Origin: an uncultured Acidimicrobiales bacterium
Lineage (GTDB): Bacteria > Actinomycetota > Acidimicrobiia > Acidimicrobiales > Bin134
Length of the DNA stretch: 64,000 bases
NCBI GenBank assembly: GCA_951813555.1
Contig: OX638344.1
Location: forward strand, 1,887,076-1,951,075
Reading direction: 5' to 3'
Shown one piece after another: positions 34,242 through 56,422 of this stretch. The notes beneath the pieces are model-generated. The model was not told where the DNA came from. It saw only the letters and a program-made list of their open reading frames with translations, and searched no databases. The stretch's first letter is position 1. Each line of letters begins with the position of its first letter. Both the position numbers and the translations under genes were made by a program.

Positions 34242-35432
34242 TCAGCAGCCCTTGTAGTTGAGGACGGCGGTGAGGCGGTGGTCTACGTCAACGAGGTCTC
34301 GCTGGGCTTCCATCACCGCGGCGATGGAGCGGTAGGCGCCGGGGGCCTCGTCGGTCAGCTTGTCGGCCTGGTCGGCCTGCCAGGTTCGCCCGGCCATCAG
34401 CTCGGTGAGTTCCTCGGGGGTGATCTCCCGCTTGGCCCGGGTGCGGCTCATCAGCCGCCCCGCGCCGTGCGACGCTGAGTGGTAAGACTGGGAGCATCCC
34501 CTTCCCGACACGATGTAGGTGTCGTCTCCCATGCTGCCGGGAATGACTCCCCGGTCACCCTCGCGTGCCCGGATGGCTCCCTTGCGCGTCACCCACATCA
34601 CCGCACCGCCGTGAGTTTCCTTTTCGGCGTAGTTGTGGTGGCAGTCGATGGTGTCGGCCGAGGTGAAGTCCAGGCCGGTGGCGGCTCGCAGCGCGCCCAA
34701 CACCGCCTCGGTCATTAGCGACCGGTTGGCCCGGGCGTAGTCCTGGGCCCACAGCATGTCGGCTATGTAGGCGTCGAACCCGTCGTCGCCCTCGATCAGG
34801 TAGGCCAGGTCGAGGTCTTCCAGTTCCCGGCCCGCCTTCCGGCAGGTCTTCTGCGCAGCCTTGATGTGCATTTTGGCCAGGGCGTTGCCCACGCCCCGCG
34901 ATCCGGAGTGCAGCATCACCCATACGCCGTCTTCGGCGTCCAGGCTCATCTCAATGAAGTGGTTGCCACCACCCAGGGTGCCGAGCTGGGCACCCATCTT
35001 GGCCTTGACCTTGTTGTGGACTGCCGCCTTGTTGGGGAGGCGATGGTTTCGCAGCCAGTCGCGAGCCGCCATGGTGGCCTCCGAGTGGGCGTTGAATCCC
35101 GAGGGCACCGCGGCGGCAACTGCGTCAAGGGCTCCGTTTAGGTTGTCCGGCAGCTGCGACGCGGTATGCGAAGTGCGGACCGCGGTCATCCCGCAGCCCA
35201 AGTCCACGCCCACCGCGGCGGGAATGATGGCCGCTTCGGTGGGGATCACCGATCCGATGGTGGCCCCCATACCTATGTGGGCGTCAGCCATCAGCGCCAC
35301 CGGCCCCGATACCGCCGGGCTGCGGGCCGTCCGCTGAGCCTGCACCAAGGTTTCCGCTTCCGCGTCGAACGCCCAGCTCACCACCGAGCGTCCTGCCCCC
35401 GCTTCCACTGTCACCGGCCCGTTCCCGCTCAT
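34242..35432 (-). CDS. rtcB: RNA-splicing ligase RtcB
   Basis: Motifs MADAHIGMGATIGSV, GGGNHFIE and the SASHGAG... C-terminal part. Start at ATG 35430-35432 (MSGNGPV). Confidence 0.9.
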   Translation of the reverse strand: MSGNGPVTVEAGAGRSVVSWAFDAEAETLVQAQRTARSPAVSGPVALMADAHIGMGATIGSVIPTEAAIIPAAVGVDLGCGMTAVRTSHTASQLPDNLNGALDAVAAAVPSGFNAHSEATMAARDWLRNHRLPNKAAVHNKVKAKMGAQLGTLGGGNHFIEMSLDAEDGVWVMLHSGSRGVGNALAKMHIKAAQKTCRKAGRELEDLDLAYLIEGDDGFDAYIADMLWAQDYARANRSLMTEAVLGALRAATGLDFTSADTIDCHHNYAEKETHGGAVMWVTRKGAIRAREGDRGVIPGSMGDDTYIVSGRGCSQSYHSASHGAGRLMSRTRAKREITPEELTELMAGRTWQADQADKLTDEAPGAYRSIAAVMEAQRDLVDVDHRLTAVLNYKGC

Positions 35433-35473
35433 CGCCCCATTCTTTAGGATTTCAGGCACCGCGCCCCAGTGAT

Positions 35474-35902
35474 TTACCCGTCTGTAACTCTTAGCCCTTC
35501 GAGTTCCGCTGCTTCTGACAGGCGGCGGTCCAAGCACATGAACGACAGAGGCCGTCCGTCTAGCTGCTCATTGACCAACAAGGCCGCACCAAGCTGTCCC
35601 GCGTCTGCGGCCCTCAAGGGGTGCCGGGCCAGGAGCAAACTGGCACGCGACCTCACTGCCAAGACCTCGGTGACCTCATCCCAGGTGTCTGCGAAGGTGT
35701 CCAACCGCTCAAGCACCTGTCGCCGATCTCGACGCGAAACCGCACCCTCTCGGGCCCGCCGCTCGATTGCACTGGCAATTTCCACACGTGTCCACGCCCA
35801 CGTAACGATTTCGCTGTCCTCGGCGAGCCAGGTTCGGGCCAGTTCGGTGCTCGGTTCCGAGACGACCAGAGGGACAAGCGCTGACGCGTCCCAGTACCTC
35901 AC
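35474..35902 (-). CDS. vapC: PIN-domain toxin VapC
   Basis: 142 aa. The N-terminal YWDASALV is typical of the PIN Asp. 4-nt overlap with the upstream antitoxin. Confidence 0.8.
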   Translation of the reverse strand: MRYWDASALVPLVVSEPSTELARTWLAEDSEIVTWAWTRVEIASAIERRAREGAVSRRDRRQVLERLDTFADTWDEVTEVLAVRSRASLLLARHPLRAADAGQLGAALLVNEQLDGRPLSFMCLDRRLSEAAELEGLRVTDG

Positions 35903-37030: not shown

Positions 37031-37474
37031 CTATTTTGGCTGTTCGCGGGCGTGAATCTCGATATCTGTGTCGAGCCTGTGGTAATCGGAGGCGTCGTCG
37101 GCGTAGATGGCCAACTCAGTTGACAGCCCGGTGGGCGGGTCGAGGGTGCCGGCCCAGATTTCTATGGCGCTCAGCTTGTCTTGCCGTTCTCCCGGCGGTA
37201 CAGCTACGACCTTCCAAAATAGGGAGCTTCCGCACTCCCGGCAGAAGCCGTAGGCCACATCGGGTTGCTCCACAGGGTGGTACCAGGCCAGCGTGTCTTC
37301 GGATATGAGGCGGAGATCGTCGCGGCGGCAGCCCGTGGCCGCGGTGAAGTGCCCCGTCCACCGCCGACACCGGTCGCAATGGCAATTCCACACATCCCGA
37401 GCCGGCCCTTCGATCACATACCTCACGGCCCCGCACATACACCGCCCGCTCAATGTGTCACCCATGCATGGCAA
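37031..37474 (-). CDS. GFA (glutathione-dependent formaldehyde-activating / CENP-V) family protein
   Basis: Cys pattern CMCGAVRY...CHCDRCRRWTG...CRECGS. Confidence 0.8.
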   Translation of the reverse strand: MPCMGDTLSGRCMCGAVRYVIEGPARDVWNCHCDRCRRWTGHFTAATGCRRDDLRLISEDTLAWYHPVEQPDVAYGFCRECGSSLFWKVVAVPPGERQDKLSAIEIWAGTLDPPTGLSTELAIYADDASDYHRLDTDIEIHAREQPK

Positions 37475-37503: not shown

Positions 37504-39948
37504 ATGCTCTCTATGGGTGGTATGACAAACCGTGAGCTGTGCCGGGCGCTAGTGAAGGCCGAGTCAGAGAACGAAGCTATCCAGATACTGAAAAATGCCG
37601 GTTTGTGGAGCGATTTGGATTGTTGGACACCGCTTGGGGGTATCGACAACAACTACGGCACGATCATCAACCAGCAGGCTTCTGCTGAAGCGGCGCTGGC
37701 CGAGAAGATCACCAATAGCATCGACGCGAGGCTTATGGCCGAATGCCGCCGGGTCGGGCATGATCCGCAGGCGTCGCTCATGAGAGACGGTACTGAGATG
37801 CCGACCAGCCCACATGACGCTGTCGACACCTTTGGTTGCCACTGGAAGCACGTCGGTGAGAGGGCTGACGGGCTGACACCCCATGCCCAGAAAATTGCGG
37901 TGGTTGTGACGGGTAGGAAAAGGCCACACCCTGCATGTGTCTCGGTAGTAGACCAAGGAGAGGGTCAGACCCCGGATGCTTTCCCCGACACCTTTTGTTC
38001 CATCTATCGAAGCAATAAGAACAAGGTCAAATTCGTGCAGGGTCGCTACAACATGGGCGGCACCGGGACACTTCGATTCTGCGGCGACCACGGGGTCCAA
38101 CTAATCGTCTCCCGACGCGACCCGGCTATTGGCGATGACCCTGCATGGGGATTCACGGTGTTCCGCAAACTTCCCCCGGCCCATGACGAGCGCAATCCCT
38201 ACTGGGCCTACTTGGTTGCTCCGGTGGATGGCAGGGATGGAACGCCGCCAGGTCAGATACTCAGGTTTGCAGCTGACAGAGTGAAGCTACTGCCAAAAGG
38301 AGCCGCTGATGGTGGCCAGCAACAGCCCTGGACCGTGCCGGTAAGCCACGGCACGTTGGTGAAGCTCTACGACTTCATCAAGATCGGGAGCGCTTCCGAT
38401 ACGCGCCCTTCTGGACAGGCGATGTCGATGACAGCCCGACTGGAAGTTGAATTGGCAGATCCGGCTCTGCCCTTTCGGGTGCATGAATGCCGTTATGCGG
38501 ACTCAAGAGGGAATACAGCAGTCAATTGCGTAGGACTGGTCAACAGGTATGCAGCAAGGCGAAGCCAAAAGACGTTGGAAGACAGCTTCCCATTCACTGC
38601 CAAGCTGACCAGCCCTTCAAGCGTCAAGCCTTCAGGCCAGCAATTCAGTGTCGCCGTATATGCCTTCAAACAGGGTGAAGACGGACGTGCCCGAGGCGGT
38701 GAACGTCGCCGGGCCGAGCACGCCGTGGCTTTCACCGTCAATGGGCAGCTTCACGCAGGCTGGCACTCTCGGTTCTTCAGGAGAAAGGGTGTAGATCTTT
38801 CACTCTTGGCCGATGACCTCCTAGTGGTGGTCGACTGTTCGAAACTGTCCGATGAGGGGATCAGACAACTCTTTACCGGCGGGCGGGACAGGATGATTGA
38901 CGATTCGCCACTCAGGTCATGGGTTGAAAGTGAGTTGGAAGACGTGCTCAGTACCGACCAGCGACTCCGTAGCCTTCATCACGTTCGACTCGACGCTAGG
39001 CGAAAGAGCGAGCGCGGCAAGCGCGCCAAAGCCGCCGCTGAGATCGTTCAGAAGTTGCTGGCTGCTAACAAGAAGCTGGCCGAGTATCTGGCCGGAGGCG
39101 TGCTTCCCTCGGGAGAAGGGCCGGTTGGGCCCGGGCCGGTGAGCGAGCCTAGAGAGTTCATCGGGAATGACCCGCCGACATTTTTTAAATTGAGAGGCAA
39201 AGACAGACTGAACGCCCAAGTCAGCAAGTCCTGTTCTGTTGCGTTCACAACCGACGCGGTGAACGGGTACTTCGACCAGGGCCAGCACCTTCTCACGTTG
39301 GACAAGCAGTCAACACCTCTGATCCGCGAATACCTACACGATGGTCGTGCCAGCATCCGGTTTGAAATGCCCGAGAGTGCAGTTGCCGGAGACCACATTT
39401 CCGCTCGACTGGAGTCCTCGGGCCCTGGACTGCTCGCTCCTTTCGTCAACGAGTTCACCGTAGTTGTAATTGACCAGAGGGAAACGAATCCCGGACCCGA
39501 GGTCAACCCAGACCCTCCAGCTGGTTTCGATTTGCCTGACGCTCAAGAAGTCCGTAAACGCGATTGGAAGCGAGAAGAATTCACAGAATGGACAGGTGCC
39601 CGCCTTATCCCCGATGCAGACCCTTCTCAGAACCTGTGGCAGTGGAATTACGACCACCCGTTCCTCGTAGAAGTCCGGAATCGGCCGGAAGCTAGGGAGA
39701 AGCCGCAGGTCCAAGAGGTGCTGAATGAGAGATTCAAGAACTCAATGCTCGTCGTTGGCCTCTCCGCCCTGAGCGCGCACGCAGCTGCGCAAGACGCGGC
39801 GAAAAAGTCTATAGACGGAGAATCAGCAGCGCTGCTCGATCCTGCCGACTGGGTTGCAGTCGCAACCGATGCTCTTGCCCCAGTGGTATTTCCGGTCATC
39901 GAGTTCGGCGAGGCGATCACCGAGGTTCACCTGGAAGATGGCGACTAG
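37504..39948 (+). CDS. GHKL/Bergerat-fold ATPase (MORC-like / HATPase_c_3-like), large C-terminal region of unknown function
   Basis: N box EKITNSIDA, G1 box VVDQGEGQT, G2 box GRYNMGGTG. The start is uncertain (ATGs at 37504, 37513, 37522; AAGAGGGGG ends at 37503). The track ORF begins at 37453 and overlaps the GFA gene. Confidence 0.7.
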   Translation: MLSMGGMTNRELCRALVKAESENEAIQILKNAGLWSDLDCWTPLGGIDNNYGTIINQQASAEAALAEKITNSIDARLMAECRRVGHDPQASLMRDGTEMPTSPHDAVDTFGCHWKHVGERADGLTPHAQKIAVVVTGRKRPHPACVSVVDQGEGQTPDAFPDTFCSIYRSNKNKVKFVQGRYNMGGTGTLRFCGDHGVQLIVSRRDPAIGDDPAWGFTVFRKLPPAHDERNPYWAYLVAPVDGRDGTPPGQILRFAADRVKLLPKGAADGGQQQPWTVPVSHGTLVKLYDFIKIGSASDTRPSGQAMSMTARLEVELADPALPFRVHECRYADSRGNTAVNCVGLVNRYAARRSQKTLEDSFPFTAKLTSPSSVKPSGQQFSVAVYAFKQGEDGRARGGERRRAEHAVAFTVNGQLHAGWHSRFFRRKGVDLSLLADDLLVVVDCSKLSDEGIRQLFTGGRDRMIDDSPLRSWVESELEDVLSTDQRLRSLHHVRLDARRKSERGKRAKAAAEIVQKLLAANKKLAEYLAGGVLPSGEGPVGPGPVSEPREFIGNDPPTFFKLRGKDRLNAQVSKSCSVAFTTDAVNGYFDQGQHLLTLDKQSTPLIREYLHDGRASIRFEMPESAVAGDHISARLESSGPGLLAPFVNEFTVVVIDQRETNPGPEVNPDPPAGFDLPDAQEVRKRDWKREEFTEWTGARLIPDADPSQNLWQWNYDHPFLVEVRNRPEAREKPQVQEVLNERFKNSMLVVGLSALSAHAAAQDAAKKSIDGESAALLDPADWVAVATDALAPVVFPVIEFGEAITEVHLEDGD

Positions 39949-42900
39949 CCAGACTTTTCAGTCTGCGCGGGTAGCACGCCCATCCAGCAGACGACGCCGA
40001 TGTCTTCTTCGGTGATCTCGGGGGGTGGGGCGGAGGGGTCGATGTAGCGCAGGCCGTAGAACTCCACTAGATCGATGATCTGCTGGGCTGCTTCGGTTGG
40101 GGTTATGGCCTCGCGATCGAGTTCGCGTCTGATTTTGCCGAGGGGTTGTCGAATTTGGCTGCCTCGTTCTATTTCTAGGGCTTCATAGGCGGTGTGGGCG
40201 GTGGGTAGGGAGGATACGTCGGGGTGGTCCAGCACTTCGCGGGCCCACTGCTGGGTTGGTCCCAGGGAGCGTCCCGTGAGGTGGCGGGCGGCGTCGTTGT
40301 GCTCTTGGATGATCGAATCAGCCGCGGCCGACCACGCTGCTTCCAAGTCAATGGGCGGGCTGCTGACTCCAGGTGCCCGCCCGGGGTTGATGCGGCGCAA
40401 GATAACCGGCGGTGCTGACGACATGTCACCTTCGACGGAGATGTAGCGCCAGTGCCTTTCGCCGTCGCGAGTACGGCAGGCGAAGAATACGCCCGGCGGT
40501 CCGACTGATGGGACATCGGGTCCTTGGGAGAATGCTGCACCCACGCCCCAGGGCAACTCCTGCACCCTGTTCAGTTCGCCTTCGGAGCCGGCTCGTCGCA
40601 GTTCAGCTCTCAGCAATTCCGCGCTAAGGGCCTGCGGCACGTCTGCTGCGTCGGGTTCGTCAATCAGCGAGACGTCGCCTTCAGCCAAGCGGCGGGCATA
40701 CGACTGGATCTCCTCGTCGACATCTCCCTCCATCACCTCGATCTCCATCCCGTAGGGGCGGGCGGCCACGATCTTGCGGCGGATGGCGGCTTCGAGCCGA
40801 AGAAGCCGTTCCAAGTCGCCTTGTTCAGGCAGCATGGTGACAAGCGACACTTCCCGATGAGGGCTCTTCAGCCGAACTACGCGGCCGTACCGCTGCACCA
40901 CCCGTTGCGGGTTCCAGGGCATGTCGTAACTGATGACGGCCGCGGCTTGCTGAAGGTTCTGGCCCTCGGAGAGCACGTCATTGCCCAGCATCAGATCGAC
41001 TTCGCCGTTGGTTGGCTCATAGCCGGGACGAACTACTGTCTCAGGGCAGAAGTGAGCCAGCAGGTCGGTACGTTCGTCGGGGCTGGTATCGGCACCGATC
41101 ACCGTCACCCGGTGGCGTCCGTCTACTGGATCGGGCAGTTGATCGTCGAGATAGCGCACTGTGTCCGCGAACGCGGAAAAGACCACCACCTTCTGTGATG
41201 GGACTTGCTCCAGCAGTCGTCGAAGCAAAGCGAGCTTGGGATCGCCAGCGGCTTTGAGAGAGCGCAACGCCACCGCAGCTGCTTCTAGGCGGACGCGGTC
41301 GGCGGCCACATCATTGCGGTACTCGGGCCTGAATCTGCTTATCGGATCGGCATCAGTCTCGTCCAAGGTCTCAGACACCCACTCACTCAACCCAGTCTCG
41401 TCAAGTTCAAGCACAGCCGCCTCCCGCAGTGCGTTCCCGCTGAGCACCCGCCCTTGATCCCAGGCGTCGAGGAACACATTGTGGGCGGCGATCATGCGTT
41501 CGAGAGTGAGCAGACAAGCTTGCCAACATGACTCAAACCGTTTGAGAACCGCGGATTGCAGTAGCGCGCTAAGGACTGTCTCCTGTCCAGCTTCCTGGTC
41601 GCCGAGCCGATAGGAACTGGGCCTGTAGCGGGCCATGTTCAAGTGCTCGATATGGTAGGTGATGGTTTGGACCAGGCCTGGGTAGGCCGCATCCAGGTCA
41701 TAACGCTCGGTGGACAGAACCGGGGTGGGGAACGACACGGGGGTTCCGTCGGGGAAGGTCTCGTCGCTGTAGTGCCGTTCGATGAATCGGCGGTCTCGTC
41801 GGACGCTCACCCTGTCCGCCAGGGAGAACAGCACGTCGGGATTGAGGTTCTCGGGGTCGCGCTCATTGGCCCCGGCCCGCAGGAACAGCCGGCGCAGTGA
41901 CGGGATGCCATGGGAGGCAAACGCCCGATCGTGGTGGGCAAAGGCCATGACTAGGTGGTAGAGGTCCCACAATCCGTTGTTGATGGGGGTGGCGGTGAGC
42001 AGAGCTAAGTCCTTTTGCTGGCCGCCTAGGAGCCGCGTCGCGGCCCGGTACCAGGTGGTGTCAGGGGTGCGAAGTGCGTGCCCCTCGTCCATCACCACTA
42101 GCCGGTAGACGTCCTTGTCGCTGTGCAGGTGGCGGCGGGCGTTGGCGGTGCCTGCCCTCACCAACTGTTCATCGGCGGCAAGCTGGTGGTAGCTGACCAC
42201 TTGGGCGGGAAGCCGAGTTTGTCCCAATCGCTCCTGCCAATAGCTCACGAGTTGGGCAGGTGCCACCACTAGGGCGTGGGTGCCCCGGTGCAGCGCGTAT
42301 TCCTCGATGAGGGCGAGGCCGATCTCGGTCTTGCCCGTGCCCACGCCGTCGGCGTAGATCACCCCGTGATGTTCCTTGATGATCTGTAGCGCCCGATGAA
42401 ACCCGTCGCGCTGGAAGGCGGTCAGCTCCACGGCAGTGGGCGTCGGCCCTTCGGGCTGGTCGTCGTCGAGACCCAGCAGCTCCAACAACGCCCGCAAGTA
42501 GATGTCGCGAGGGTCGAGCAGTCCGACTTCGGGGAAGAGCAAGCCCCGCAAATCGGCTTTGAATTCTTGGGCTTCGTTCCACAGCCGTTCGAACCAGGCC
42601 ACGGCTTGCTTGGCCACCGGGGGGTCGTACTGCACCAGCCCCAACTCCAGGTTGGCGAACAGGCCGCCGCCGGTGAGGTTGGCTGAAGTGACCAGCGCGG
42701 CCCGGGCATCGTCTTTGTTGCCAAACAGATAGGCCTTGCCGTGGAGGAATTTGTCGGTGTAACGCCGCACCTCTACCTCGGGCCGCTCAAGCCAGACGTC
42801 GAGGTCAACCAGCTTGGCCGCAGCTCGGCTGGGCGGAAACCGGGCTAGGTCGCGGTCGGCCCGCAGCCCTTCGAGGGCCAACTCGAAACGGGAAACCGGC

Positions 42901-43124
42901 ACTTGAACGCCCAGGCCTGGGGCAGGTGCCACCCCCAGCAACAGCCGAATGGTGCGCCCGTCAGCCACCGCAGTAGCCAAGTGGTGCAGGCCCCCCAGAT
43001 TCACATAGCCGGTGGCAATGGAGAGTCCGTGGTGGGCGGCAAAGTCGTCGAGCAGGTAAGAGAGCGCGTCAGCGTGGCGGTTGCCGTCGGCCAAGTTGTC
43101 GAGCAGGTAGGGACGCTCGGGCAT
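39945..43124 (-). CDS. PLD (HKD) nuclease domain fused to SNF2-family helicase
   Basis: HKD motif FLHGKAYLF...ALVTSANLTGGG. Helicase motifs ADGVGTGKTEIG, VMDEGHALR, LLTATPINN, SEGQNLQ, MPWNPQRVVQRYGRVVR. The ATG overlaps the upstream TGA by 1 nt. Confidence 0.85.
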   Translation of the reverse strand: MPERPYLLDNLADGNRHADALSYLLDDFAAHHGLSIATGYVNLGGLHHLATAVADGRTIRLLLGVAPAPGLGVQVPVSRFELALEGLRADRDLARFPPSRAAAKLVDLDVWLERPEVEVRRYTDKFLHGKAYLFGNKDDARAALVTSANLTGGGLFANLELGLVQYDPPVAKQAVAWFERLWNEAQEFKADLRGLLFPEVGLLDPRDIYLRALLELLGLDDDQPEGPTPTAVELTAFQRDGFHRALQIIKEHHGVIYADGVGTGKTEIGLALIEEYALHRGTHALVVAPAQLVSYWQERLGQTRLPAQVVSYHQLAADEQLVRAGTANARRHLHSDKDVYRLVVMDEGHALRTPDTTWYRAATRLLGGQQKDLALLTATPINNGLWDLYHLVMAFAHHDRAFASHGIPSLRRLFLRAGANERDPENLNPDVLFSLADRVSVRRDRRFIERHYSDETFPDGTPVSFPTPVLSTERYDLDAAYPGLVQTITYHIEHLNMARYRPSSYRLGDQEAGQETVLSALLQSAVLKRFESCWQACLLTLERMIAAHNVFLDAWDQGRVLSGNALREAAVLELDETGLSEWVSETLDETDADPISRFRPEYRNDVAADRVRLEAAAVALRSLKAAGDPKLALLRRLLEQVPSQKVVVFSAFADTVRYLDDQLPDPVDGRHRVTVIGADTSPDERTDLLAHFCPETVVRPGYEPTNGEVDLMLGNDVLSEGQNLQQAAAVISYDMPWNPQRVVQRYGRVVRLKSPHREVSLVTMLPEQGDLERLLRLEAAIRRKIVAARPYGMEIEVMEGDVDEEIQSYARRLAEGDVSLIDEPDAADVPQALSAELLRAELRRAGSEGELNRVQELPWGVGAAFSQGPDVPSVGPPGVFFACRTRDGERHWRYISVEGDMSSAPPVILRRINPGRAPGVSSPPIDLEAAWSAAADSIIQEHNDAARHLTGRSLGPTQQWAREVLDHPDVSSLPTAHTAYEALEIERGSQIRQPLGKIRRELDREAITPTEAAQQIIDLVEFYGLRYIDPSAPPPEITEEDIGVVCWMGVLPAQTEKSG

Positions 43125-46100
43125 CAGCTCAGCTCGTGGAGTCGGCGGACCAGGGCTTCTCGATAGACAGGGGGAACCGCGTCAGTGGTGAAGTCTTCGA
43201 ACATTGTTTCCATGTCTGCCTCCGTGAGTTGCCAGGCCCGCGCCACCCGGGCATCGATGTCTATCCGCAGGCGTTGTCGCTTATCAGGCAGCAGGGGACC
43301 GCAATCAACTCCGGCGGCTGCAGCGAATTCGACATAGCGCTTGTCGATCGCCGATAGGCGGGCAGCCGCATTGGCAATTTCAACGAAATCCGAATTACTC
43401 AGATCAGGGACTGCCATTGCCTCGAGGAGAAAGAAATTGAAATTGGCCTCAACAAAGCGTCGAGCCTGCCAGTCGAACGGCAGGCTGTTCATGATTCCCA
43501 GGCAGGCTGCTTGGGCAAGTTCTGAACCAGAAATGAATGCCAAGTACGGAGCGCTATTTGCGAAAAAGACTTCTGATGGTGCTAGGCAGGCGCGCACTGT
43601 TCTGCTGTCGTCAGATCGCGAGATGCCTCGGAATGCCAGCCGAGCACGGTCCAGTTCAGCCGAAACTGCTTGGCGGCGGTCCTTCACCGGGGTGGACTCT
43701 GCGAGCACCGACTTCAACCCAGGCCGGGTCTTGCGGACCTTCTTCCAAACCATGTCATTGGTCGGGCATAGCCGGGCTTCAGCCCCGTGAGGGTCGTACT
43801 GGTCGAAGCTCTCGCCCTTCCACAGAGGCAGCCCTGTAGTTGCATTTCGCCACAGATGCTTGTCGTTCGTCTCATCAAGCTCTCGAACCGGAAAGCACTG
43901 CCATTTTCCACCCGCCCCCTTCGGAAATGGCGATCCTGTTCGGAGCTTGGCCAACAACTCGGCCTCTTCCTGTGACCGGAGCCTGGGAGTCATCCAACCG
44001 GAGGCGAATGCAGAGGGCGAGACAAGGATCCCCGGCGAAGAAGCCTGGTGCCGCCAAGCTTCAACCGAATCGGCGATACCGGCGATCTCAACCCTGTGAC
44101 TGGTGTCGGGAGTACATTTCGCCGCCACTGCGAGCACAATTCCATATTGAGGGTGGGTGTCGAATATCCAGAGCCGCCGGTTTACCAAGAAGTCGATTCG
44201 TCGGGCCGACATTTGGGTGTAGAGCCAATCTCGAAACCCTTCCGACCCCTTGTTGACAAATGCTCCGCCGGGAAGCACCACGCCGATTGCTCCGTCAGCG
44301 CGGACCAGGGTGCGGTAGCGCTGACAGAAGTACTTGTAGAGGTCAGGGTCGCCAGCGGTGGATTCGAACTCCCCGGAAGCTAAGGCCTCCCGTTGAGCCT
44401 TGGCCCGTCCTTGATCTGCGTCTAGCAATTCAGCAAGTTCGGGACGTTCGGCCAACAGGTCGGCCATTGCAGCGTCGCGTTCACTCTCGGGTAGCCCGTG
44501 TAACCCAGGGAGGTGCAATCCGCACAGTGACAGTTTCTCAACGGTTACTTCCTCCCACGGGGGATTGCCCACCACTACGTCGAAGCCAGGGCGGTCGCGA
44601 GAGAATGCCCGGGGAAATTGGAGCGGCCAGTGCAGGAAGGCGTGCGTGCTGCCGAGTTTGACGGCGTGCTGCACAATCGCCTGGCCGTTGTGGCCGTTTG
44701 TGCCAGCGATCACATCCCGGCCGTGTAGTTCGGCATGGCCCCGAGCGCCGATTAGGCCGAACCCCTCTGCTGTCCAAAGGTCGAAGAGCCGTTGCAGTCC
44801 CTCAGTGGCCTGGCGGGCTTCTTTATCGGCAGCCTTGCTGGCCTTCACCTCAGCGGGGGTGAGGTCGTCGATGTCGGCCAGCCGAGCGGAGGCCTCAGCG
44901 GCATCGGCTAGGGCGGTTTGCAAGGTGTCAGCTTGAAGTGTGCCCTCCCGGATCACGGTCTTGGCGTTGACCACCCCGATTAGGGAGTTGCCCACCACCA
45001 CGTTCCGGTCCAAATAGGCCAGCGACAGCCCCGGCACGAACGACGCAAGCCACAGCGACAGGGTGGCGATCTCCGCGCCCATGGGGCTGCGATCCACTCC
45101 GAACACACAGTGCTTGAGCACAAGTCGGCGCAGCAAGGCTACATCGGTGACTGCTGAACCCATCAAGGTGCTGTCGCGGAGCCGGTTCAGCGCCTCTCGC
45201 ACCCCAGGGAGCGGATGAGCGGCCAGAAAGGCCACAGTCTGATCGGCTAATTCCTCGGTTACCTGCACCAGAAAATGGGCACTGCCGCAGGCCGGATCCA
45301 GTACCGCGAAATCGAATAAGTCGCGGGCGGCCTGCTCCGGGTCGGTGTTGATCTGCTGGCGCACCCGTTCTAAGTGCTTTTGAAAGGCGGGCCGCACTGT
45401 GTGGCGCACCAAGTGTTCAACCAACGAGACCGGGGTGTAGTACACACCCCCCGCCTTGCGGCCTCCTTCGTTAGTCAGCCAAAGCAGCGACCCGGCGGCA
45501 ACCCCGGATTGATTCCCGTTCGTAGCCTGGTTCTCTGCTTGGCCTTGGTCGGGCAAGTAGCGGTCTATCTTCACGTCGTAGCGCAGCGCCCGGTCGGCCA
45601 CCGACAGCCGCAGGCTGAGCAGGGCTTCGTAGATGTGGCCCAAGTGGCCGACCTCCAACGACGAGTAGTCGATGCCGTGTCCGGTGGCGGTGTCGCGCCC
45701 CACAGCCAAGAGCACTCGAGCGAAGTGGGGGTCGGCCAATTCCAAGTGCTCCAACAGCTCGGCCCCCTCGAAATCGGTCGCCGCGAACAGTGCCCCGTTG
45801 TAGGCGGGCACCCCCCAGGCCGGGTTGCCGTCGCGCAAGGCGCCCACCAAGATCGTGAAGCTCTTCCACAGAGCCGTTGATTGCGGGGTCAATCTGCTCT
45901 TGGTCTTGTGAGCTTCGCCCACCAGCTCGGTGAGTGAGTGGCGCCGGTAGGTCTCGTTGTCCACCGGCAGAAAGTGGGAGCTCTCGGCGTAGAGCACGAA
46001 TAGCAACCGGAACAGCAGGGTCAACGCCGCCCTTTCCAACTCCAGCCGCTGCCGGTCGTCGCTGGCATCGAGGCCGCTCTGTCGGGTCCAATGATCGAGG

Positions 46101-47092
46101 CCCTCGGCCAGGGCGGGCAAGGCTTCTTGGCGGATGGTGTGGTCGAGCCGCTTGCGCAGCTCGATGCCGAAGGCTTGGGCTTCGGCTTGGAGTTCGGCCA
46201 GTCCGCCCTGAGCCAGATAGCGGGGGGAGAGCAGGGCCAGGTAGGGCCGGTTCTCTTGGCCGAGAAGGTCGGCGTCGAGGTCGAGCCACTCACCGGTGGT
46301 AGCGGACGGGTCGCAGTCGAACAGCCGGTATTGGTTGCGACACGCCATGATGCCGTAGCGGACGCCGTGCTGGTGGCAATCCGAGGCCAAAAGGCCCTCA
46401 GCGGGACGGCCCATTTCGTCGACACGGACGAAATGCTCAGGCTCGGCCCATGGGTGGACCATGGCCACCGGCCGGCCGTCAAATCGGGCCAGGTAGCCCC
46501 GTTGGGGGAGCATCTCAATTTCGTAACCCATCCCATGGAGCAGCGTCTTCCAGTCGCCGATGACTGACAGCCTCAGGGTGATCTCGCTCGCGTCTACCCA
46601 TCGGTCGGGATGATCGCGGAACCGAGCCTCCAGCGTGTGATGAGTGAGCAGACCGTGGACCACCTTGCCCCGACCGGCCAGCCGGACGACCTCACCGGCC
46701 AAGTGGCGGACTGCGTCGAGGCTGTGCATTGAGGCGGTGCCCTCGATGGCCGCGGACAGCTTTGCGCAGTCCACTGAGCGGATGGGCTCGTTGAAAGTAC
46801 GGGGGCCGAGGGTGCGGACGCTGTCGGGCCGCTCGGGATCGTCGATCACCAGCAAATAGCGGAAGTCCATCTTGTCGGCGTGCTCTCGCCAGCGGGCCCG
46901 CAGGCTGCGCTCTTCCGGCTTCTCGGCGATGGCCACCTCAATCTTGTTGACCCGCACCGACCGTCTGATGCCGGACCGGTTGGGCATCTCGCGAGCGATC
47001 CCCAGCCCCATCAGCCGGTTAAGCAGGTCGTCGGCATTCACCGACCTCAACTGTACGCGGCACCGATCAACGACAGCGGTGTTTGCCGCCAT
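43124..47092 (-). CDS. Large gamma-class N6-adenine DNA methyltransferase (Eco57I/MmeI/PglX-like architecture)
   Basis: 1322 aa. Motifs GVYYTP, VLDPACGSAHFL (motif I) and VVGNPPW (motif IV), plus the LLFRLLFVLYAES helix. Extra ~330-aa N-terminal region. Confidence 0.85.
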   Translation of the reverse strand: MAANTAVVDRCRVQLRSVNADDLLNRLMGLGIAREMPNRSGIRRSVRVNKIEVAIAEKPEERSLRARWREHADKMDFRYLLVIDDPERPDSVRTLGPRTFNEPIRSVDCAKLSAAIEGTASMHSLDAVRHLAGEVVRLAGRGKVVHGLLTHHTLEARFRDHPDRWVDASEITLRLSVIGDWKTLLHGMGYEIEMLPQRGYLARFDGRPVAMVHPWAEPEHFVRVDEMGRPAEGLLASDCHQHGVRYGIMACRNQYRLFDCDPSATTGEWLDLDADLLGQENRPYLALLSPRYLAQGGLAELQAEAQAFGIELRKRLDHTIRQEALPALAEGLDHWTRQSGLDASDDRQRLELERAALTLLFRLLFVLYAESSHFLPVDNETYRRHSLTELVGEAHKTKSRLTPQSTALWKSFTILVGALRDGNPAWGVPAYNGALFAATDFEGAELLEHLELADPHFARVLLAVGRDTATGHGIDYSSLEVGHLGHIYEALLSLRLSVADRALRYDVKIDRYLPDQGQAENQATNGNQSGVAAGSLLWLTNEGGRKAGGVYYTPVSLVEHLVRHTVRPAFQKHLERVRQQINTDPEQAARDLFDFAVLDPACGSAHFLVQVTEELADQTVAFLAAHPLPGVREALNRLRDSTLMGSAVTDVALLRRLVLKHCVFGVDRSPMGAEIATLSLWLASFVPGLSLAYLDRNVVVGNSLIGVVNAKTVIREGTLQADTLQTALADAAEASARLADIDDLTPAEVKASKAADKEARQATEGLQRLFDLWTAEGFGLIGARGHAELHGRDVIAGTNGHNGQAIVQHAVKLGSTHAFLHWPLQFPRAFSRDRPGFDVVVGNPPWEEVTVEKLSLCGLHLPGLHGLPESERDAAMADLLAERPELAELLDADQGRAKAQREALASGEFESTAGDPDLYKYFCQRYRTLVRADGAIGVVLPGGAFVNKGSEGFRDWLYTQMSARRIDFLVNRRLWIFDTHPQYGIVLAVAAKCTPDTSHRVEIAGIADSVEAWRHQASSPGILVSPSAFASGWMTPRLRSQEEAELLAKLRTGSPFPKGAGGKWQCFPVRELDETNDKHLWRNATTGLPLWKGESFDQYDPHGAEARLCPTNDMVWKKVRKTRPGLKSVLAESTPVKDRRQAVSAELDRARLAFRGISRSDDSRTVRACLAPSEVFFANSAPYLAFISGSELAQAACLGIMNSLPFDWQARRFVEANFNFFLLEAMAVPDLSNSDFVEIANAAARLSAIDKRYVEFAAAAGVDCGPLLPDKRQRLRIDIDARVARAWQLTEADMETMFEDFTTDAVPPVYREALVRRLHELS

Positions 47093-47199: not shown

Positions 47200-47775
47200 T
47201 CAGCGTTGAGCGTTGCGCCGACTTCGTTCTCTTGCAACTTGGCGCTCAACGCCTGTGGTGTTCCACCGGTATTGCGCCATTTTCCTAGTCACCCCAAATT
47301 TTCTTGCGATCTGCTCGATTGCTGCGTCTTCTCGAGCATGTTGGAGAAGGAGCTTTCGAGGTAGGAGCAAGGTCCCACCAAGGGCCGTGGCTTCCTCTTC
47401 TTGCCCTGGCTGGCAGGTGCGGAACGGGACTCCGTCCAGATACTGAATTTCTGCAAGTTCATGGTCGAGGATGATGTGTGCCAATTCGTGTGCGATGTCG
47501 CTGGCTTGCCGTCCAGCGCTCATGAGGGGATTAAACACAATGACGTGTCGTTCGTTGATCTCAAATGTGCAGGCCGAGAACGCATAAGTTTGAATGCGCT
47601 CGATCTCTTGAAGCCGCTCCAGCGGTACAAGATCGGCTGCTGAGATGACCTGTACATCTAGTTGCTCAGCCACCGCCGTGAGGTTTAGGGGTTTGGAGTT
47701 GGTAGCTCCGACCCTTGCTCGGAGCTCCTCAGCGATGCGCTCTGCTTGAGTCTTGAATCCGCGCGGAAGTGTCAC
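47200..47775 (-). CDS. ImmA/IrrE-family zinc metallopeptidase
   Basis: 191 aa with the HEXXH motif HELAHIILDH. It abuts the upstream XRE gene (stop and start are adjacent). Confidence 0.8.
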   Translation of the reverse strand: MTLPRGFKTQAERIAEELRARVGATNSKPLNLTAVAEQLDVQVISAADLVPLERLQEIERIQTYAFSACTFEINERHVIVFNPLMSAGRQASDIAHELAHIILDHELAEIQYLDGVPFRTCQPGQEEEATALGGTLLLPRKLLLQHAREDAAIEQIARKFGVTRKMAQYRWNTTGVERQVARERSRRNAQR

Positions 47776-48375
47776 TCACAGGACTCCATCGGCATCGAGT
47801 GCGTTGAGCTCGGAGCGCATTTCCTGGAGAAGGGCGCCGAGGCGGTCAGCAACCCCTGGCCGAAGAACAGAAGCAGCGCGCAAGTGGCATGCGACTGTTG
47901 GAGGATGCGAAGGCTCACGCGCCAGGGCTTCGTACATGTCCCGTACGACCGACGCAATCCTTGAAGCGGCATCTTGCTCAAGCCTGGGGTCGGTCAGAAG
48001 ATGCTGCAAGACGAGGTCTGGGGTCTCCGACTTGCGGGGGGCTGCCGAGATAAAGAACGTCTCAGGCGGAAGGTGAAGCCAAGCGCACAGCCTCAGGAAG
48101 GTTCTGAGGTCCGGCTGGGATCCCGCTTCGACGCGTGACCACGTCATGAAGCTGACCTCCGCGGTTTCAGCAGCTCTCCGCATCGATAGCCCAGCTGATG
48201 TTCGTCGTTCTCGTAGCATCTCTCCTAGAGCTGCTACGTCAAGGTGGGCAACGTCTTGGGCTCCGGAAGCGGTGTCGCTCGGATCTGACCCCGGAGAGGG
48301 CTTTGACGGCGGCACATGTTCACCGTAACAGCAAGCAGCTGGTGATACTTGGATGGGCTGGTGAACTAAACTCAT
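47776..48375 (-). CDS. XRE-family helix-turn-helix transcriptional regulator
   Basis: HTH LGEMLRERRTSAGLSMRRAAETAEVSFMTWSRVEAG. ATG at 48373-48375, with GTG one codon upstream. The N-terminal ~50 aa are low-complexity, so the true start may be internal. Confidence 0.75.
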   Translation of the reverse strand: MSLVHQPIQVSPAACCYGEHVPPSKPSPGSDPSDTASGAQDVAHLDVAALGEMLRERRTSAGLSMRRAAETAEVSFMTWSRVEAGSQPDLRTFLRLCAWLHLPPETFFISAAPRKSETPDLVLQHLLTDPRLEQDAASRIASVVRDMYEALAREPSHPPTVACHLRAASVLRPGVADRLGALLQEMRSELNALDADGVL

Positions 48376-48500
48376 CACCTAACGGGCATTGCCCCTTTGC
48401 TGTGTCATCTCTCTGATATGGTGATGGCACGTCTGGCCTCGTGGCGCGGCGCACGAATGCAGGCATCGCGACCACTCGGACGCGATTTCGAGAGAGGCAA

Positions 48501-48701
48501 ATGTTAGTGATTGTCAAGAGGAAGAGGTTCCTTGGAAACACCAACACGTTGGAGGTGCATGACACCCACAACGAGAAGAACGGGTGCCAGCTTGACAAGA
48601 TCAAGTTGGAGCACCGCAGGTGGTACGACTCCCTCGCGGAGGCGAAGCGCGACAAGCGCTATGACAACTGCCATTGGTGCCTCGGTGGTAGCACTCGATG
48701 A
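48501..48701 (+). CDS. Small Cys-containing protein resembling the Ada-type zinc-binding domain
   Basis: 66 aa from ATG 48501, with GAGAGAGG upstream. The pattern VHDTHNEKNGCQLDKI......YDSLAEAKRDKRYDNCHWC resembles YH..C..i....f.s..eA...Gy..C..C. Confidence 0.5.
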   Translation: MLVIVKRKRFLGNTNTLEVHDTHNEKNGCQLDKIKLEHRRWYDSLAEAKRDKRYDNCHWCLGGSTR

Positions 48702-48743
48702 ACGATTCGACACCTCTTACGAATTGGGAAAGGGGGTGAGACT

Positions 48744-48857
48744 ATGGCAAAGCAAAAAGCGCATCGCTCGGCAGTGACGGGCCGCTACGTGAAGGCTTCG
48801 ACTGCAAAGCGAAACCCGCGTACGACTGTGTCTGAGACCGTCAAGCGTCGTAAGTGA
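48744..48857 (+). CDS. 37-aa highly basic small protein (below the ORF-track cutoff)
   Basis: ATG 48744 is preceded by AAGGGGGTGAG. Translation: MAKQKAHRSAVTGRYVKASTAKRNPRTTVSETVKRRK. A strong hairpin follows immediately. Confidence 0.5.
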   Translation: MAKQKAHRSAVTGRYVKASTAKRNPRTTVSETVKRRK

Positions 48858-48861
48858 GCAT

Positions 48862-48900
48862 TTGTTGGCGCGGCCGGAGATTTTCTGGCCGCGCCAACAA
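48862..48900. terminator. Perfect 14-bp stem hairpin (terminator-like)
   Basis: TTGTTGGCGCGGCC (48862-48875), 11-nt loop, GGCCGCGCCAACAA (48887-48900). There is no clear T-tract. Confidence 0.6.
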
Positions 48901-48910
48901 AGTTCCATCA

Positions 48911-49396
48911 ATGGATTTATTTAGAAGAACTAATGTAGAGCGAAAGAGAGGAATTGTGGTCATCAAAAGGGTGATGCATCCAACTATCCTGACCATCGTT
49001 GCAGTCCACTATTCCATATTGTTTGCCGCGAGTGCTAACGATTTAGAGTTGAATGATAGAATGAGGTACCTATATCTTATCTCTGCGGGTCTATTTTCTG
49101 TTGTATGGGGCGGGGCAATTTCTTGGCTCTACATCCATAGAGATTCAGATTCCAAAGGGGATTTTGACCAGTCTAGAGATAGCATGCAACAACTCGCGCT
49201 ATTCAGTCCAGCACTAATCATCTCGCTAGTTCTTGCGGGATTATCTTCTATCTTTCGTTCGTCTGAAGGATGGGTCGATGCTATTTCGATTGCGTATCTC
49301 GTTTCCTTGCTCGTAATAATCCCAGCGGTTCTTGTTATGATTATTACGCACTTTTATCAAGTGAGGGAGCGAAGTAAATCCAGCCAGCGAAGCTGA
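48911..49396 (+). CDS. Four-TM membrane protein, very AT-rich gene, no family recognised
   Basis: 161 aa from ATG 48911. Four hydrophobic segments: ILTIVAVHYSILFAA, YLYLISAGLFSVVWGGAISWLYI, LALFSPALIISLVLAGLSSIF, AISIAYLVSLLVIIPAVLVMIITHF. A hand count of line 49021-49080 gives 23/60 G+C. Confidence 0.65.
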   Translation: MDLFRRTNVERKRGIVVIKRVMHPTILTIVAVHYSILFAASANDLELNDRMRYLYLISAGLFSVVWGGAISWLYIHRDSDSKGDFDQSRDSMQQLALFSPALIISLVLAGLSSIFRSSEGWVDAISIAYLVSLLVIIPAVLVMIITHFYQVRERSKSSQRS

Positions 49397-49509
49397 TGGA
49401 AGTTGTCTAGTGGAGCACAGCCTCTAGTTTCCAGCGACTGCCAGAGCCACTAATGCCGACTTTCTTGGATATGCCTAGTATAAGTTGCTTGTAGTCGGCA
49501 GAGTCATAG

Positions 49510-51045
49510 TCAAGCTTGCTGTTCAGCTAATTCGGCCTTGCGGCGGGCGATGAAATCTTGCAGTTCGGCGTCGATGGCGCCGTCTATAGGGGGCGGCTGG
49601 TAGTCGGCCAGCAGTTCTTTCCAGCGGGTGTTGGCCCGCTGCGCCGCGGTGAGGGCGCCCTCCTCCGACCATTGCTCGAAGCTGTTGCTGTCGGCCACCT
49701 CTGAGCGCCAGAAGGCGGTCTCGAAGTTGGCCAAGGTGTGGGCATTGCCCAAGAAGTGGTCGCCGTGGGTATTAGTGCGGAACGCCTCCATGGCCTGGCC
49801 GTTGTCGGTCAAGTCGACGCCGCGGGCGTGAACCTCCATGGCGCCGAGCTGGTCGGCGTCCATGATGAGCTTCTCGTAGCCCAGGGTCAGGCCCCCCTCC
49901 AGCCACCCGGCGGCGTGGAGCACGAAGTTGACCCCGGCCTGCACGGTGGGCAAAAGCGTGTGGGCCGACTCGTAGGCCGCCTGGGCGTCGGGGGCCTTGG
50001 ACGCGGTGAGCTGACCGCCGGAGCGGAACGGCACCCCGCACCGCCGGGCCAGCGCCGCCATGACGTAGATGGCCTGGCCAGCCTCGGGGGTGCCGAACGT
50101 GGGGGCGCCGGTGGCCATCGACATCGACGAGGCGAAGGTGCCGAACACCACCGGCGAGCCGGGCCGCACCAGTTGCAGGTAGGCCATGCCCGACAGCGCC
50201 TCGGCCAGGGCTTGGGCGGCCAAGCCGGCCACCGTCACCGGCGACATGGCGCCGGCCAGGATGAAGGGGCTGATCACGCTGGCCTGGTTGGCCCGGGCGT
50301 AGGTGGTGGCTGCGCCCAGCATGGTGGCGTCCCAGCGCATGGGGGAGGAGGCGTTGATCAGCGAGGTCATCACCGTGCGGTCGGCCAGGTCGCCCCCGAA
50401 GGCGATGCGGGCCAGCTCCACCGAGTCGGCGGCCCGCTCGGCGCTGGTCACCGAGCCCATGAAGGGCTTGTCGCTGTAGCGCAGGTGGGCGTACACCATG
50501 TCGAGGTGGCGAAAGTCCACCGGCACGTCCACCGGCTCGCACACCGTGCCCCCGCTGTGGTGCAGGTGGGGGAGCCGGTAGGCCAGCTTCACCACGTTCT
50601 CGAAGTCGGCCAGGGTGGCGTAGCGCCGGCCCTGGTCCAAGTCGGTGACGAACGGCGAGCCGTAGTTGGGGACGAACACGGTGGTGTTTCCGCCGATGCT
50701 CACGCTGCGCTCGGGGTTGCGGGCGTGCTGGATGTAGGCAGCGGGGGCGTTCTCGGCCACGATCTGGCGGCACATCCCCCGGGGGAACCGCACCAGCTCG
50801 CCGTCGACGTCGGCGCCCGCGTTGCGCCACAGGTCCAGAGCGTCGGGATAGTCCTGGAAAGCGATGCCCACCTCGGCCAGGATGGTCTCGGCGTTCTCCT
50901 CGATCTGGGCCAGTCCGGCCTCGTCGATGATCTCCACCGGCGGTAAACGCCGTTCCAGCACGGGGGCGGCCAACACCTGGCTGGCCGCTCGGGCTGCCTG
51001 TCGCCCGGCCCGTCCACCGCCGCGTCTGCCTTGTCGCTCGCTCAT
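49510..51045 (-). CDS. MttB-superfamily quaternary-amine:corrinoid methyltransferase (non-pyrrolysine)
   Basis: 511 aa, MttB-family-like throughout, no in-frame TAG. It is the last gene of a 4-nt-overlap operon. Confidence 0.85.
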   Translation of the reverse strand: MSERQGRRGGGRAGRQAARAASQVLAAPVLERRLPPVEIIDEAGLAQIEENAETILAEVGIAFQDYPDALDLWRNAGADVDGELVRFPRGMCRQIVAENAPAAYIQHARNPERSVSIGGNTTVFVPNYGSPFVTDLDQGRRYATLADFENVVKLAYRLPHLHHSGGTVCEPVDVPVDFRHLDMVYAHLRYSDKPFMGSVTSAERAADSVELARIAFGGDLADRTVMTSLINASSPMRWDATMLGAATTYARANQASVISPFILAGAMSPVTVAGLAAQALAEALSGMAYLQLVRPGSPVVFGTFASSMSMATGAPTFGTPEAGQAIYVMAALARRCGVPFRSGGQLTASKAPDAQAAYESAHTLLPTVQAGVNFVLHAAGWLEGGLTLGYEKLIMDADQLGAMEVHARGVDLTDNGQAMEAFRTNTHGDHFLGNAHTLANFETAFWRSEVADSNSFEQWSEEGALTAAQRANTRWKELLADYQPPPIDGAIDAELQDFIARRKAELAEQQA

Positions 51046-54010: not shown

Positions 54011-54363
54011 GTTGCCGCCTCCTGGGGACTCACGGTTGCGTTGTCGGGATCCCAGCCGCCAGTGGCCACAAACTCCTTGAGCCGCTCCCGGGGGAATGCG
54101 GCCTCGAGTTCCTCGGCAGCTCGCAGGGCGGCGCCTTCGGGATCGTCGGGATCGCCTGGTATCAGTTTCCGGCGCCACTCGCCGACGTATTGTGATGCCT
54201 GGGTCTTGCCGGCCACCATGGCGGCTTCGTCGATGGCCCGTTGGAAGCGGCGGGGGAGGATGCGCTGGATCTTTGAGGATCCCGAGCCTGCGTTAACCTG
54301 AGCGGGGATGTCCCGCCAGCAGATCACCACTAGGTTGCCGTTACTCCCCCGCCGCCGACTCAC
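54007..54363 (-). CDS. Small conserved protein of corrinoid-methyltransferase clusters (I recall similar proteins annotated as 'virulence factor' family), function unknown
   Basis: 118 aa with 4-nt overlaps on both sides. The family name is from memory only. Confidence 0.55.
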   Translation of the reverse strand: MSRRRGSNGNLVVICWRDIPAQVNAGSGSSKIQRILPRRFQRAIDEAAMVAGKTQASQYVGEWRRKLIPGDPDDPEGAALRAAEELEAAFPRERLKEFVATGGWDPDNATVSPQEAAT

Positions 54364-55681: not shown

Positions 55682-55718
55682 TCGACACACTCCTTCTGTG
55701 GTGCTGGACCCAGGGCGG

Positions 55719-56080: not shown

Positions 56081-56102
56081 CTGCCTCCGCAACACCGGGC
56101 GA

Positions 56103-56405: not shown

Positions 56406-56422
56406 GAAGACATGTCATCGAG

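Follow-up and report, generated by a model that had tools for sequence, protein, structure and literature searches.

The 64,000-nucleotide stretch of an uncultured Acidimicrobiales bacterium analysed here (contig OX638344.1, forward-strand positions 1,887,076 to 1,951,075; hereafter the window) contains a low-GC island with three large genes, which encode a MORC-like ATPase of the GHKL type, a nuclease-motor protein with an HKD domain fused to a SNF2-type helicase (HKD-SNF2), and a large N6-adenine methylase. An earlier note on this DNA had grouped the three genes into one defence module. The island probably represents, instead, two modification-linked defence units lying side by side: unit A, formed by the methylase and HKD-SNF2 genes, and unit B, represented by the GHKL gene. 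Each is best regarded as a variant, not characterised before, of a known kind of modification-based defence.

Linkage of the HKD-SNF2 gene was followed in a metagenome scan of 80 loci (helicase identity 49-96%), 70 of which have at least 1 kb of upstream and 39 enough downstream sequence. Of the 70 loci, 69 have a methylase gene upstream in the same orientation, at a gap of at most 150 bp in 61. The GHKL gene occurs in 2 of the 39, and these two belong to the lineage of the window itself, their helicases being 96% identical to the one there; co-occurrence had been set beforehand as the test of a single three-gene module, and the absence of the GHKL gene from the other 37 loci speaks against it. 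Clustering of the neighbours in all 80 loci revealed no conserved third partner of the pair. In four independent contexts (Gemmatimonadota and others; helicase identity 62-73%) the methylase gene is followed by the helicase gene, with no GHKL gene. Loci of this kind, in independent contexts flanked by housekeeping or other defence genes, include L081-L084 and L087, and the GHKL gene is missing even where the helicase is 73-82% identical (L084, L089). A plasmid of Mycobacterium gallinarum, pJCM6399, carries the same two-gene layout at 34% identity; there the products are annotated as "hypothetical protein" and "helicase-related protein". The methylase/HKD-SNF2 pair is thus an autonomous unit, found in different phyla as well as on a plasmid.

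The GHKL gene shows a different pattern of linkage. Its homologues constitute a full-length family of about 800 aa, patchily distributed over many phyla, with every member annotated as hypothetical; a profile search at E<=1e-30 yielded 1409 clusters at 50% identity. In the GHKL-side scan (one genome per species; the best 80 of at least 561 loci kept), only four genomes (L001, L002, L003 and L005), all from Acidimicrobiia and 78-88% identical to the window, have HKD-SNF2 and the large methylase next to the GHKL gene. The order IclR-GFA-GHKL-helicase-methylase-MTTB-RACo is syntenic between the window and these relatives. Since the trio is seen only in this clade, at one syntenic locus, it constitutes a single evolutionary event and not a repeated co-occurrence. 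The usual neighbour is c1, a methylase of about 400 aa with motif I preceding a TSPPY motif IV (Pfam N6_N4_Mtase, PADLOC Type II MTase), which is present in 54 of the 80 loci and lies convergent, immediately downstream of the GHKL gene, in 44 of 72 (e.g., L010 from Roseobacter cerasinus, GHKL gene 10001-12340 and methylase approximately 12391-13560, an example of the layout typical of L006-L080). The c1 methylase is described as alpha-class; a nuclease is recognisable neither in it nor in the GHKL protein. Variable winged-helix genes (Mrr_N-like, DndB-like, and others) often precede the GHKL gene. The homologue in L085 (54% identity) is paired with a c1-type methylase, and that in L086 (79% identity) lies beside prs, pth, and mfd, with neither helicase nor related methylase. 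No relic of the c1 methylase or of the upstream winged-helix genes was found in the window.

The GHKL gene therefore belongs to a different, independently mobile family. As its members are usually convergent with their own methylase of about 400 aa, the family appears to provide the non-methylase arm in a second system based on modification, and together with c1 it is a candidate two-gene, MORC-like, modification-based system without a recognisable nuclease. The modification genes linked to its members vary (c1, a C5+N6 fusion methylase in L048 and L076, and DndB), a pattern pointing to a component on the restriction side that can form new pairs with different marks. Distant relatives (26-33% identity; L169 on Ensifer adhaerens pC, L170 on a Devosia neptuniae plasmid, and L171 on a Hymenobacter plasmid) adjoin Ssp-type phosphorothioation genes, encoding phosphoadenosine phosphosulfate (PAPS) reductase, a DUF4007 protein, cysteine desulfurase, and a large ATP-binding protein. 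Two of these three loci also contain a second GHKL protein ('sensor histidine kinase') and a hypothetical protein of 635-680 aa, and SIR2 and DUF262 genes are adjacent on the Hymenobacter plasmid.

The gene models are listed in the table below. The three open reading frames and all the motifs quoted in the earlier note are present in the translations, the GHKL product having 814 aa (about 815 had been given), and the stop/start overlap of the methylase and HKD-SNF2 genes is read directly. The GHKL and HKD-SNF2 genes are convergent and hence not co-transcribed. For the GHKL gene, the start at 37504 gives the length of the homologues and lies directly 3' of a Shine-Dalgarno-like GAGGGGG run, while an open reading frame begun at the 37453 ATG would share 22 bp with the 5' end of the divergent GFA gene (37031-37474, minus strand); homologue lengths and the GAGGGGG run thus favour a start at 37504 or 37513 over 37453. 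The lower GC content of the island was borne out (0.56-0.63 over approximately 36-50 kb of the window, 0.65-0.70 elsewhere). Comparison with the relatives gives ratios of nonsynonymous to synonymous divergence (dN/dS) of 0.08-0.19 across the three genes, i.e., purifying selection. Synonymous divergence (dS) from L002 ranges from 0.46 to 1.7 among the island genes (GHKL gene, 1.70; helicase gene, 0.89) and equals 0.31 in the flanking MTTB gene. These higher and unequal values hint at allele exchange or at separate histories within the syntenic locus.

Features of the island and domains of the encoded proteins (window positions, or residues marked aa; residues of the GHKL protein are numbered from 37522)
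Feature	Position	Strand	Remarks
MORC-like GHKL+S5 ATPase gene	37504..39948	+	814 aa from the 37504 start; longest open reading frame from ATG 37453
GHKL protein, ATPase module	aa 1-460		
GHKL protein, long helix	aa 463-524		
GHKL protein, Ig-like beta-sandwich	aa 555-650		
GHKL protein, small alpha/beta domain	aa 674-720		followed by a helical C-terminus
CTAG common to the GHKL and HKD-SNF2 stop codons	39945..39948	both	tail-to-tail
HKD-SNF2 gene	39945..43124	-	1059 aa
HKD-SNF2 protein, HKD nuclease domain	aa 32-182		PLD family
HKD-SNF2 protein, SNF2-type motor	aa 231-417 and 630-760		superfamily 2 (SF2); followed by a C-terminal region of about 250 aa
TGATG stop/start overlap of the methylase and HKD-SNF2 genes	43122..43126	-	read directly
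Large N6-adenine methylase and specificity gene	43124..47092	-	1322 aa
Methylase, N-terminal domain	aa 1-345		two alpha/beta subdomains
Methylase, helical region	aa 350-530		
Methylase, catalytic core	aa 531-847		gamma-class N6-adenine; motif I DPACGSAHF, motif IV NPPW
Methylase, target-recognition half	aa 850-1322		variable
ImmA/IrrE-type M78 metallopeptidase gene	47200..47775	-	Pfam Peptidase_M78, E 8e-18; upstream of the methylase gene
XRE-family helix-turn-helix regulator gene	47776..48378	-	Pfam HTH_31, E 7e-10; abuts the M78 gene (gap 0)

In the favoured reading, unit A would be an autonomous, translationally coupled two-gene system resembling restriction-modification (R-M). Its methylase would recognise the target through the variable C-terminal half and methylate host sites at the N6 position of adenine. 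The HKD-SNF2 protein would be the restriction arm, the motor of which may load at unmethylated sites or be recruited there and move along double-stranded DNA in an ATP-driven manner; cleavage would probably be coupled to this movement, with two HKD domains, one per chain, coming together for the cut. Type III and Type ISP enzymes, and the MtsC/MtsD arm of the MANTIS system, follow the same logic. Unit B would consist of the GHKL+S5 ATPase, probably an ATP-driven dimeric DNA clamp; the usual c1 methylase is missing here, and the operon of unit A fills the same convergent position.

Several points weigh against so clean a division. At least five species-level genomes of Acidimicrobiia, as well as two metagenome contigs, have kept the three genes directly adjoining, and such stability might stem from functional coupling and not from synteny alone. 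A restriction-side protein left as an orphan, with no protecting methylase, is expected to be lost, yet the GHKL gene is conserved. As the GHKL relatives pair with several kinds of modification genes, a re-wiring to the big methylase is plausible. Moreover, the roles of all three proteins are predicted ones, and the N-terminal domain of the methylase has no assigned role. Because the operon occupies the exact c1 slot, the orphan gene is conserved, and the modification partners of the family are varied, we give functional coupling in this lineage, in which the MORC-like protein uses the methylation mark of its neighbour, a minor but real chance.

A fully integrated three-gene system, restricted to this lineage, is unlikely. 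There, the methylase would mark self, and the GHKL and HKD-SNF2 proteins would act on unmarked DNA, or the GHKL protein would load or license a partner; the two-gene operon would have displaced the small methylase of the GHKL gene in situ, and the loading would be analogous to that by MtsA on the MANTIS methylase. This arrangement would account for the position of the operon (convergent and immediately downstream of the GHKL gene, as c1 is), for the retention of all three genes under purifying selection in relatives 78-88% identical, and for the occurrence of the GHKL family with varied modification modules; it would also agree with the recurrent theme of MORC/paraMORC ATPases accompanied by an SF2 helicase, a nuclease, and a methylase (Iyer, Abhiman and Aravind 2008, PMC2292703). 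However, the association traces back to a single ancestral event, with no independent recurrence in either the 80 GHKL loci or the 80 helicase loci, and the parts are found alone at high identity (L084, L086, L089). The convergent genes are not co-transcribed, and the differing dS values of the GHKL and helicase genes hint at separate histories.

Somewhat more doubtful still is a broader version, in which the members of the GHKL family are MORC-like restriction effectors that sense host modification and clamp or compact unmodified DNA without cutting it, and have here been re-wired to the mark of a Type IIG-like methylase. The mark would mostly be methylation by the small methylase, and Ssp-type phosphorothioation in the distant relatives; in the window, two mechanistically different effectors would read one mark. 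That restriction without a nuclease could proceed by ATP-driven clamping or compaction is a guess.

The assignment of the HKD-SNF2 protein is based on its motifs, which had been read in the translation (FLHGKAYLF...ALVTSANLTGGG, GVGTGKTEIG, DEGH, TATPINN, and MPWNPQRVVQRYGR), and it is supported by the Pfam matches to PLDc_2, SNF2-rel_dom, and Helicase_C, accompanied by a weak match to RE_NgoFVII. Its best PADLOC match is 'HKD+Snf2' (C3a139), at 132 bits and partial (aa 103-417); DrmD follows at 94 bits, and HmaA, at 66 bits, covers only the C-terminal helicase lobe (aa 643-752). Residues H128 and K130, the TSANLT motif, and the GVGTGKT, DExH, TPINN, and QRxxRxGR motifs are invariant in 16 homologues. 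Each chain contains a single HKD motif, so dimerisation is probably required for catalysis, as in PLD nucleases such as Nuc and BfiI. The sequence search against PDB chains gave generic SNF2/RapA matches only. As had been proposed, the HKD domain is the only confidently predicted nuclease of the locus.

The methylase translation contains GVYYTP, VLDPACGSAHFL, VVGNPPW, and LLFRLLFVLYAES, and motifs I and IV are invariant among the homologues. Pfam supports the assignment with Eco57I (54 bits), N6_Mtase, and MmeI_Mtase, and with nothing beyond these; the sequence search against PDB chains returned nothing useful. A PADLOC match to DrmMI (226 bits) is confined to the core. The specificity of the enzyme most likely resides in its C-terminal half, which diverges far faster than the rest of the protein and the helicase: between the window and L088 (6015-9998), residues 1-700 are 87-97% identical and residues 800-1300 only 50-61%, at a helicase identity of 96%. 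This target-recognition half looks swapped or fast-evolving, as is typical of specificity modules. The diverged stretch (approximately aa 800-1322) corresponds to window positions 43127-44700.

A complete Type IIG enzyme with an N-terminal PD-(D/E)xK nuclease, to which HKD-SNF2 would be an accessory or a separate effector, is an improbable identity for the 1322-aa protein. The top PADLOC match, REase_MTase_IIG (PDLC03620, 377 bits), would agree with such an identity, but it covers aa 265-1302 and profile positions 274-1353 of 1378, leaving unaligned both the N-terminal domain of the protein and the first 270 or so positions of the profile. The AlphaFold model of the N-terminal 345 aa (predicted local distance difference test, pLDDT, 87) comprises two alpha/beta subdomains and resembles PD-(D/E)xK folds weakly and non-significantly (Hjc, E 0.07; BpuSI, E 0.49; also splicing endonuclease and HsdR). 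A Foldseek search against the PDB gave no match at E<=1e-3, the best being YddE (E 3.5e-3), and neither an invariant Lys nor a D...(D/E)xK triad is found in this region among 42 homologues. Because of this weak fold likeness and the lack of a conserved Lys, the protein is called neither a complete Type IIG enzyme nor a nuclease; the near-obligate linkage to HKD-SNF2 also speaks for cleavage by the partner.

The third protein is a GHKL ATPase of the Bergerat fold with an S5 transducer domain. Its translation contains EKITNSIDA, DQGEG, and GRYNMGGTG. The Pfam model HATPase_c_3 reaches 20 bits (E 7e-4), under its 25-bit cutoff, and this sub-threshold score made independent support necessary. Such support is provided by the residues E61/N65/D68, D144xGEGQ, the G2 box, and a QTK-like NGQTHG loop, all (near-)invariant in 61 homologues, and by the AlphaFold2 model (pLDDT 81; predicted template modelling score, pTM, 0.71), which Foldseek aligns with the GHKL+S5 modules of MORC3, MORC2, SMCHD1, and TRAP1 over 420-500 columns at E of about 2e-7. 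As the GHKL+S5 module extends to approximately aa 460, the C-terminal tail comprises about 350 aa and not the 550 aa put forward earlier; a disordered linker separates its long helix from the Ig-like beta-sandwich. No nuclease fold or motif is visible in the protein, and none of the 61 family members has further Pfam domains. The sequence search against PDB chains gave nothing useful, and neither PADLOC nor NCBIfam matches the protein; among five distant homologues and three plasmid relatives, PADLOC found no defence family, the only match being QatB at 16 bits (E 0.0025) in one homologue.

These missing nuclease and defence matches, together with the roughly 7 of 72 loci that have no methylase nearby, might indicate a gene outside defence that lies here by accident, such as a decaying remnant or an ATPase with a housekeeping role in chromatin or repair, which we consider highly improbable given the methylase linked in about 70% of the loci, the defence-island or mobile contexts of other loci (integrases, toxin-antitoxin, SIR2, DUF262, and phosphorothioate genes), the patchy distribution across phyla, and an intact open reading frame evolving at a dN/dS of about 0.09 (range 0.08-0.10).

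No canonical class of defence system fits the locus, as had been claimed. Among the likely window genes scanned, some small open reading frames being left out of the scan, none encodes PglZ, BrxC, DrmA, DrmB, DUF499, DUF3780, or Hsd proteins, so that the canonical partners of BREX, DISARM, and Type I/III systems are absent; in NCBIfam every model stays under its cutoff for all three proteins. BREX is set apart by the lack of PglZ and BrxC and by PglX models that score about 20 bits against cutoffs of 500-900. For MADS, the NCBIfam model MADS2 reaches 23 bits against a cutoff of 720, and the GHKL protein has no counterpart among the NCBIfam models. Components missing from BREX, DISARM, or BREX-related systems were also sought just outside the island, and this possibility was rejected: the flanks, in the window as in its relatives, are made up of syntenic genes for one-carbon and betaine metabolism, and no genes of the MtsA/MtsB type were seen in the syntenic flanks of the relatives.

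Class 1 DISARM resembles the locus in its components, as its SNF2 helicase DrmD, PLD nuclease DrmC, and Eco57I-like N6-adenine methylase DrmMI all match by hidden Markov model. The NCBIfam scores are nevertheless far under cutoff (DrmD 107 against 610, DrmC 37 against 133), the PADLOC DrmMI match covers the core only, the DrmA helicase and DrmB (DUF1998) are absent from the window, and the PLD and SNF2 domains are fused here.

The match to the PADLOC system Hma, suggested earlier, did not hold. Hma is likewise worded as 'helicase, methylase, ATPase', and its HmaA model matches the C-terminal helicase lobe of HKD-SNF2, as noted above. It consists, however, of a SNF2 helicase with a C-terminal PD-(D/E)xK nuclease (DUF3883/NOV_C), a DUF1156 methylase, and a DUF499 AAA+ ATPase (PMC8565338, PMC11232893, PMC12839542), and a later classification places it among the BREX-related systems, as Type 1 (PMC12839542). 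The locus has none of these three architectures: the nuclease is an N-terminal HKD domain, the methylase belongs to Eco57I, N6_Mtase, and MmeI_Mtase in Pfam, and the ATPase has a GHKL fold with no match to PADLOC or to the DUF499 Pfam family, as opposed to the AAA+ (ORC/Cdc6-clade) fold of HmaC.

The closest effector architecture, at the level of architecture only, is found in MANTIS (Gao_RL, a Type-2 BREX-related system, MtsABCD), where MtsD combines an N-terminal HKD/PLD nuclease with an SF2 motor (bioRxiv 10.64898/2026.09.23.753747; PMC12839542) and the N6-adenine methylase MtsC gives specificity and directs this PLD-SF2 effector (bioRxiv 10.64898/2026.09.23.753747). Unit A shares both the MtsD architecture and the methylase logic. 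Its methylase differs from MtsC, which needs loading: it is Eco57I/Type IIG-like, is 1322 aa long, and contains a target-recognition half of its own. The window also lacks, among the scanned genes, counterparts of MtsA, a DUF499 AAA+ ATPase, and of MtsB, a small co-regulator given as DUF3780 (PMC12839542).

The methylase half of unit A is Type IIG-like in that it joins methylase and target-recognition domain in one polypeptide. In Type ISP (LlaGI/LlaBIII) and Type III enzymes, methylase and target recognition are coupled to an SF2 ATPase-nuclease, and cleavage results from ATP-driven communication along DNA. Unit A resembles a Mod/Res pair, or a Type ISP enzyme divided between two polypeptides, with no membership at the sequence level; it differs in the HKD/PLD domain in place of PD-(D/E)xK, in the SNF2-type in place of a Res/Rad25-like motor, and in the large Eco57I/MmeI-type methylase. 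PLD nucleases are also coupled to helicase-like ATPases in the ATP-dependent Type II systems CglI and NgoAVII and in SauUSI (cited in bioRxiv 10.64898/2026.09.23.753747). The weak RE_NgoFVII match of HKD-SNF2 is a further point of likeness. CglI and NgoAVII differ in having R and N as separate proteins, a B3-like DNA-binding domain, and methylases of other types, and SauUSI in being modification-dependent and having no methylase. A gene-context table in PMC9881135 lists a Type II R-M coding sequence beside a PLD+SNF coding sequence, a likeness by described architecture only; beyond this mention, our literature search found no naming or study of the architecture of unit A.

For the GHKL protein, the general likeness to the prediction of Iyer, Abhiman and Aravind, also invoked earlier, holds. 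They predicted MORC and paraMORC GHKL ATPases in R-M contexts with methylases, SF2 helicases, and nucleases, and proposed for them a role in ATP-driven DNA looping or clamping (PMC2292703). The GHKL+S5 module, the methylase, helicase, and nuclease neighbours, and the patchy, laterally mobile distribution all agree with this description. The protein has neither the RecB-like/DUF4263 nuclease of paraMORC3 nor the TIR domain of paraMORC4 and is placed in no named paraMORC family; paraMORC3 is now classed with Shedu (PMC12137116), and the tests of Shedu/paraMORC3 membership on the GHKL protein were negative. A bare pair of GHKL protein and methylase, with no helicase or nuclease, is the commonest context of the family and a minority theme in PMC2292703. 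A literature search for a characterised bacterial defence system of GHKL protein and methylase returned only the 2008 study, a paper on two-component systems, and work on paraMORC3/Shedu.

Between the methylase and MTTB genes lies an insertion specific to the window (47200-49396), which comprises the XRE and M78 genes and a 180-aa open reading frame without a family match, and has the lowest GC content of the window (0.556). The XRE/M78 pair is absent from the relatives (L001-L005, L088/L090), which rules it out as a conserved part of the system. In this genome alone, by analogy with HTH/M78 switches of other defence operons, the pair may be a CapH/CapP-like regulatory switch placed before the methylase/HKD-SNF2 operon and may gate the expression of unit A. 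The island interrupts a region of betaine, methylamine, and one-carbon metabolism (window positions 1-36000 and 49500-57700), with two MttB-family methyltransferases, RACo, corrinoid and pterin-binding proteins, two dimethylglycine-oxidase-like GCV_T fusions, and electron transfer flavoprotein (ETF) alpha and beta. Outside the island, the 64 kb hold genes of one-carbon, betaine, or general metabolism. No link to the cluster was found for a PIN-domain protein, probably a VapC-type toxin (57658-58176, minus strand), or for the RtcB RNA ligase in the flank (34242-35537, minus strand). The closest genomes are sponge-associated Acidimicrobiia metagenome-assembled genomes (Candidatus Poriferisocius/Poriferisodalis).

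Unit A would represent the minimal form, with two proteins only, of a logic that combines a methylase with a PLD-motor-nuclease and for which MANTIS and Class 1 DISARM use four or five. It is common among soil, marine, and sponge-associated bacteria and also occurs on plasmids; RefSeq carries it only as "hypothetical" or "helicase-related", and it could serve as a simple system for how a methylase passes an unmodified site to an HKD-SNF2 nuclease. The family of MORC-like GHKL proteins with a methylase is a more unusual lead than the trio. The 2008 prediction of bacterial MORC immunity has so far been tested only for the nuclease-bearing paraMORC3/Shedu branch, and a pair of GHKL protein and methylase without an evident nuclease would make it directly testable. 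If the three genes did work together, the locus would capture two defence lineages merging around one methylation mark; if the GHKL protein acted by clamping or compaction and had been re-wired to its neighbour's mark, it would constitute a bacterial counterpart of the methylation-linked MORC silencing in eukaryotes.

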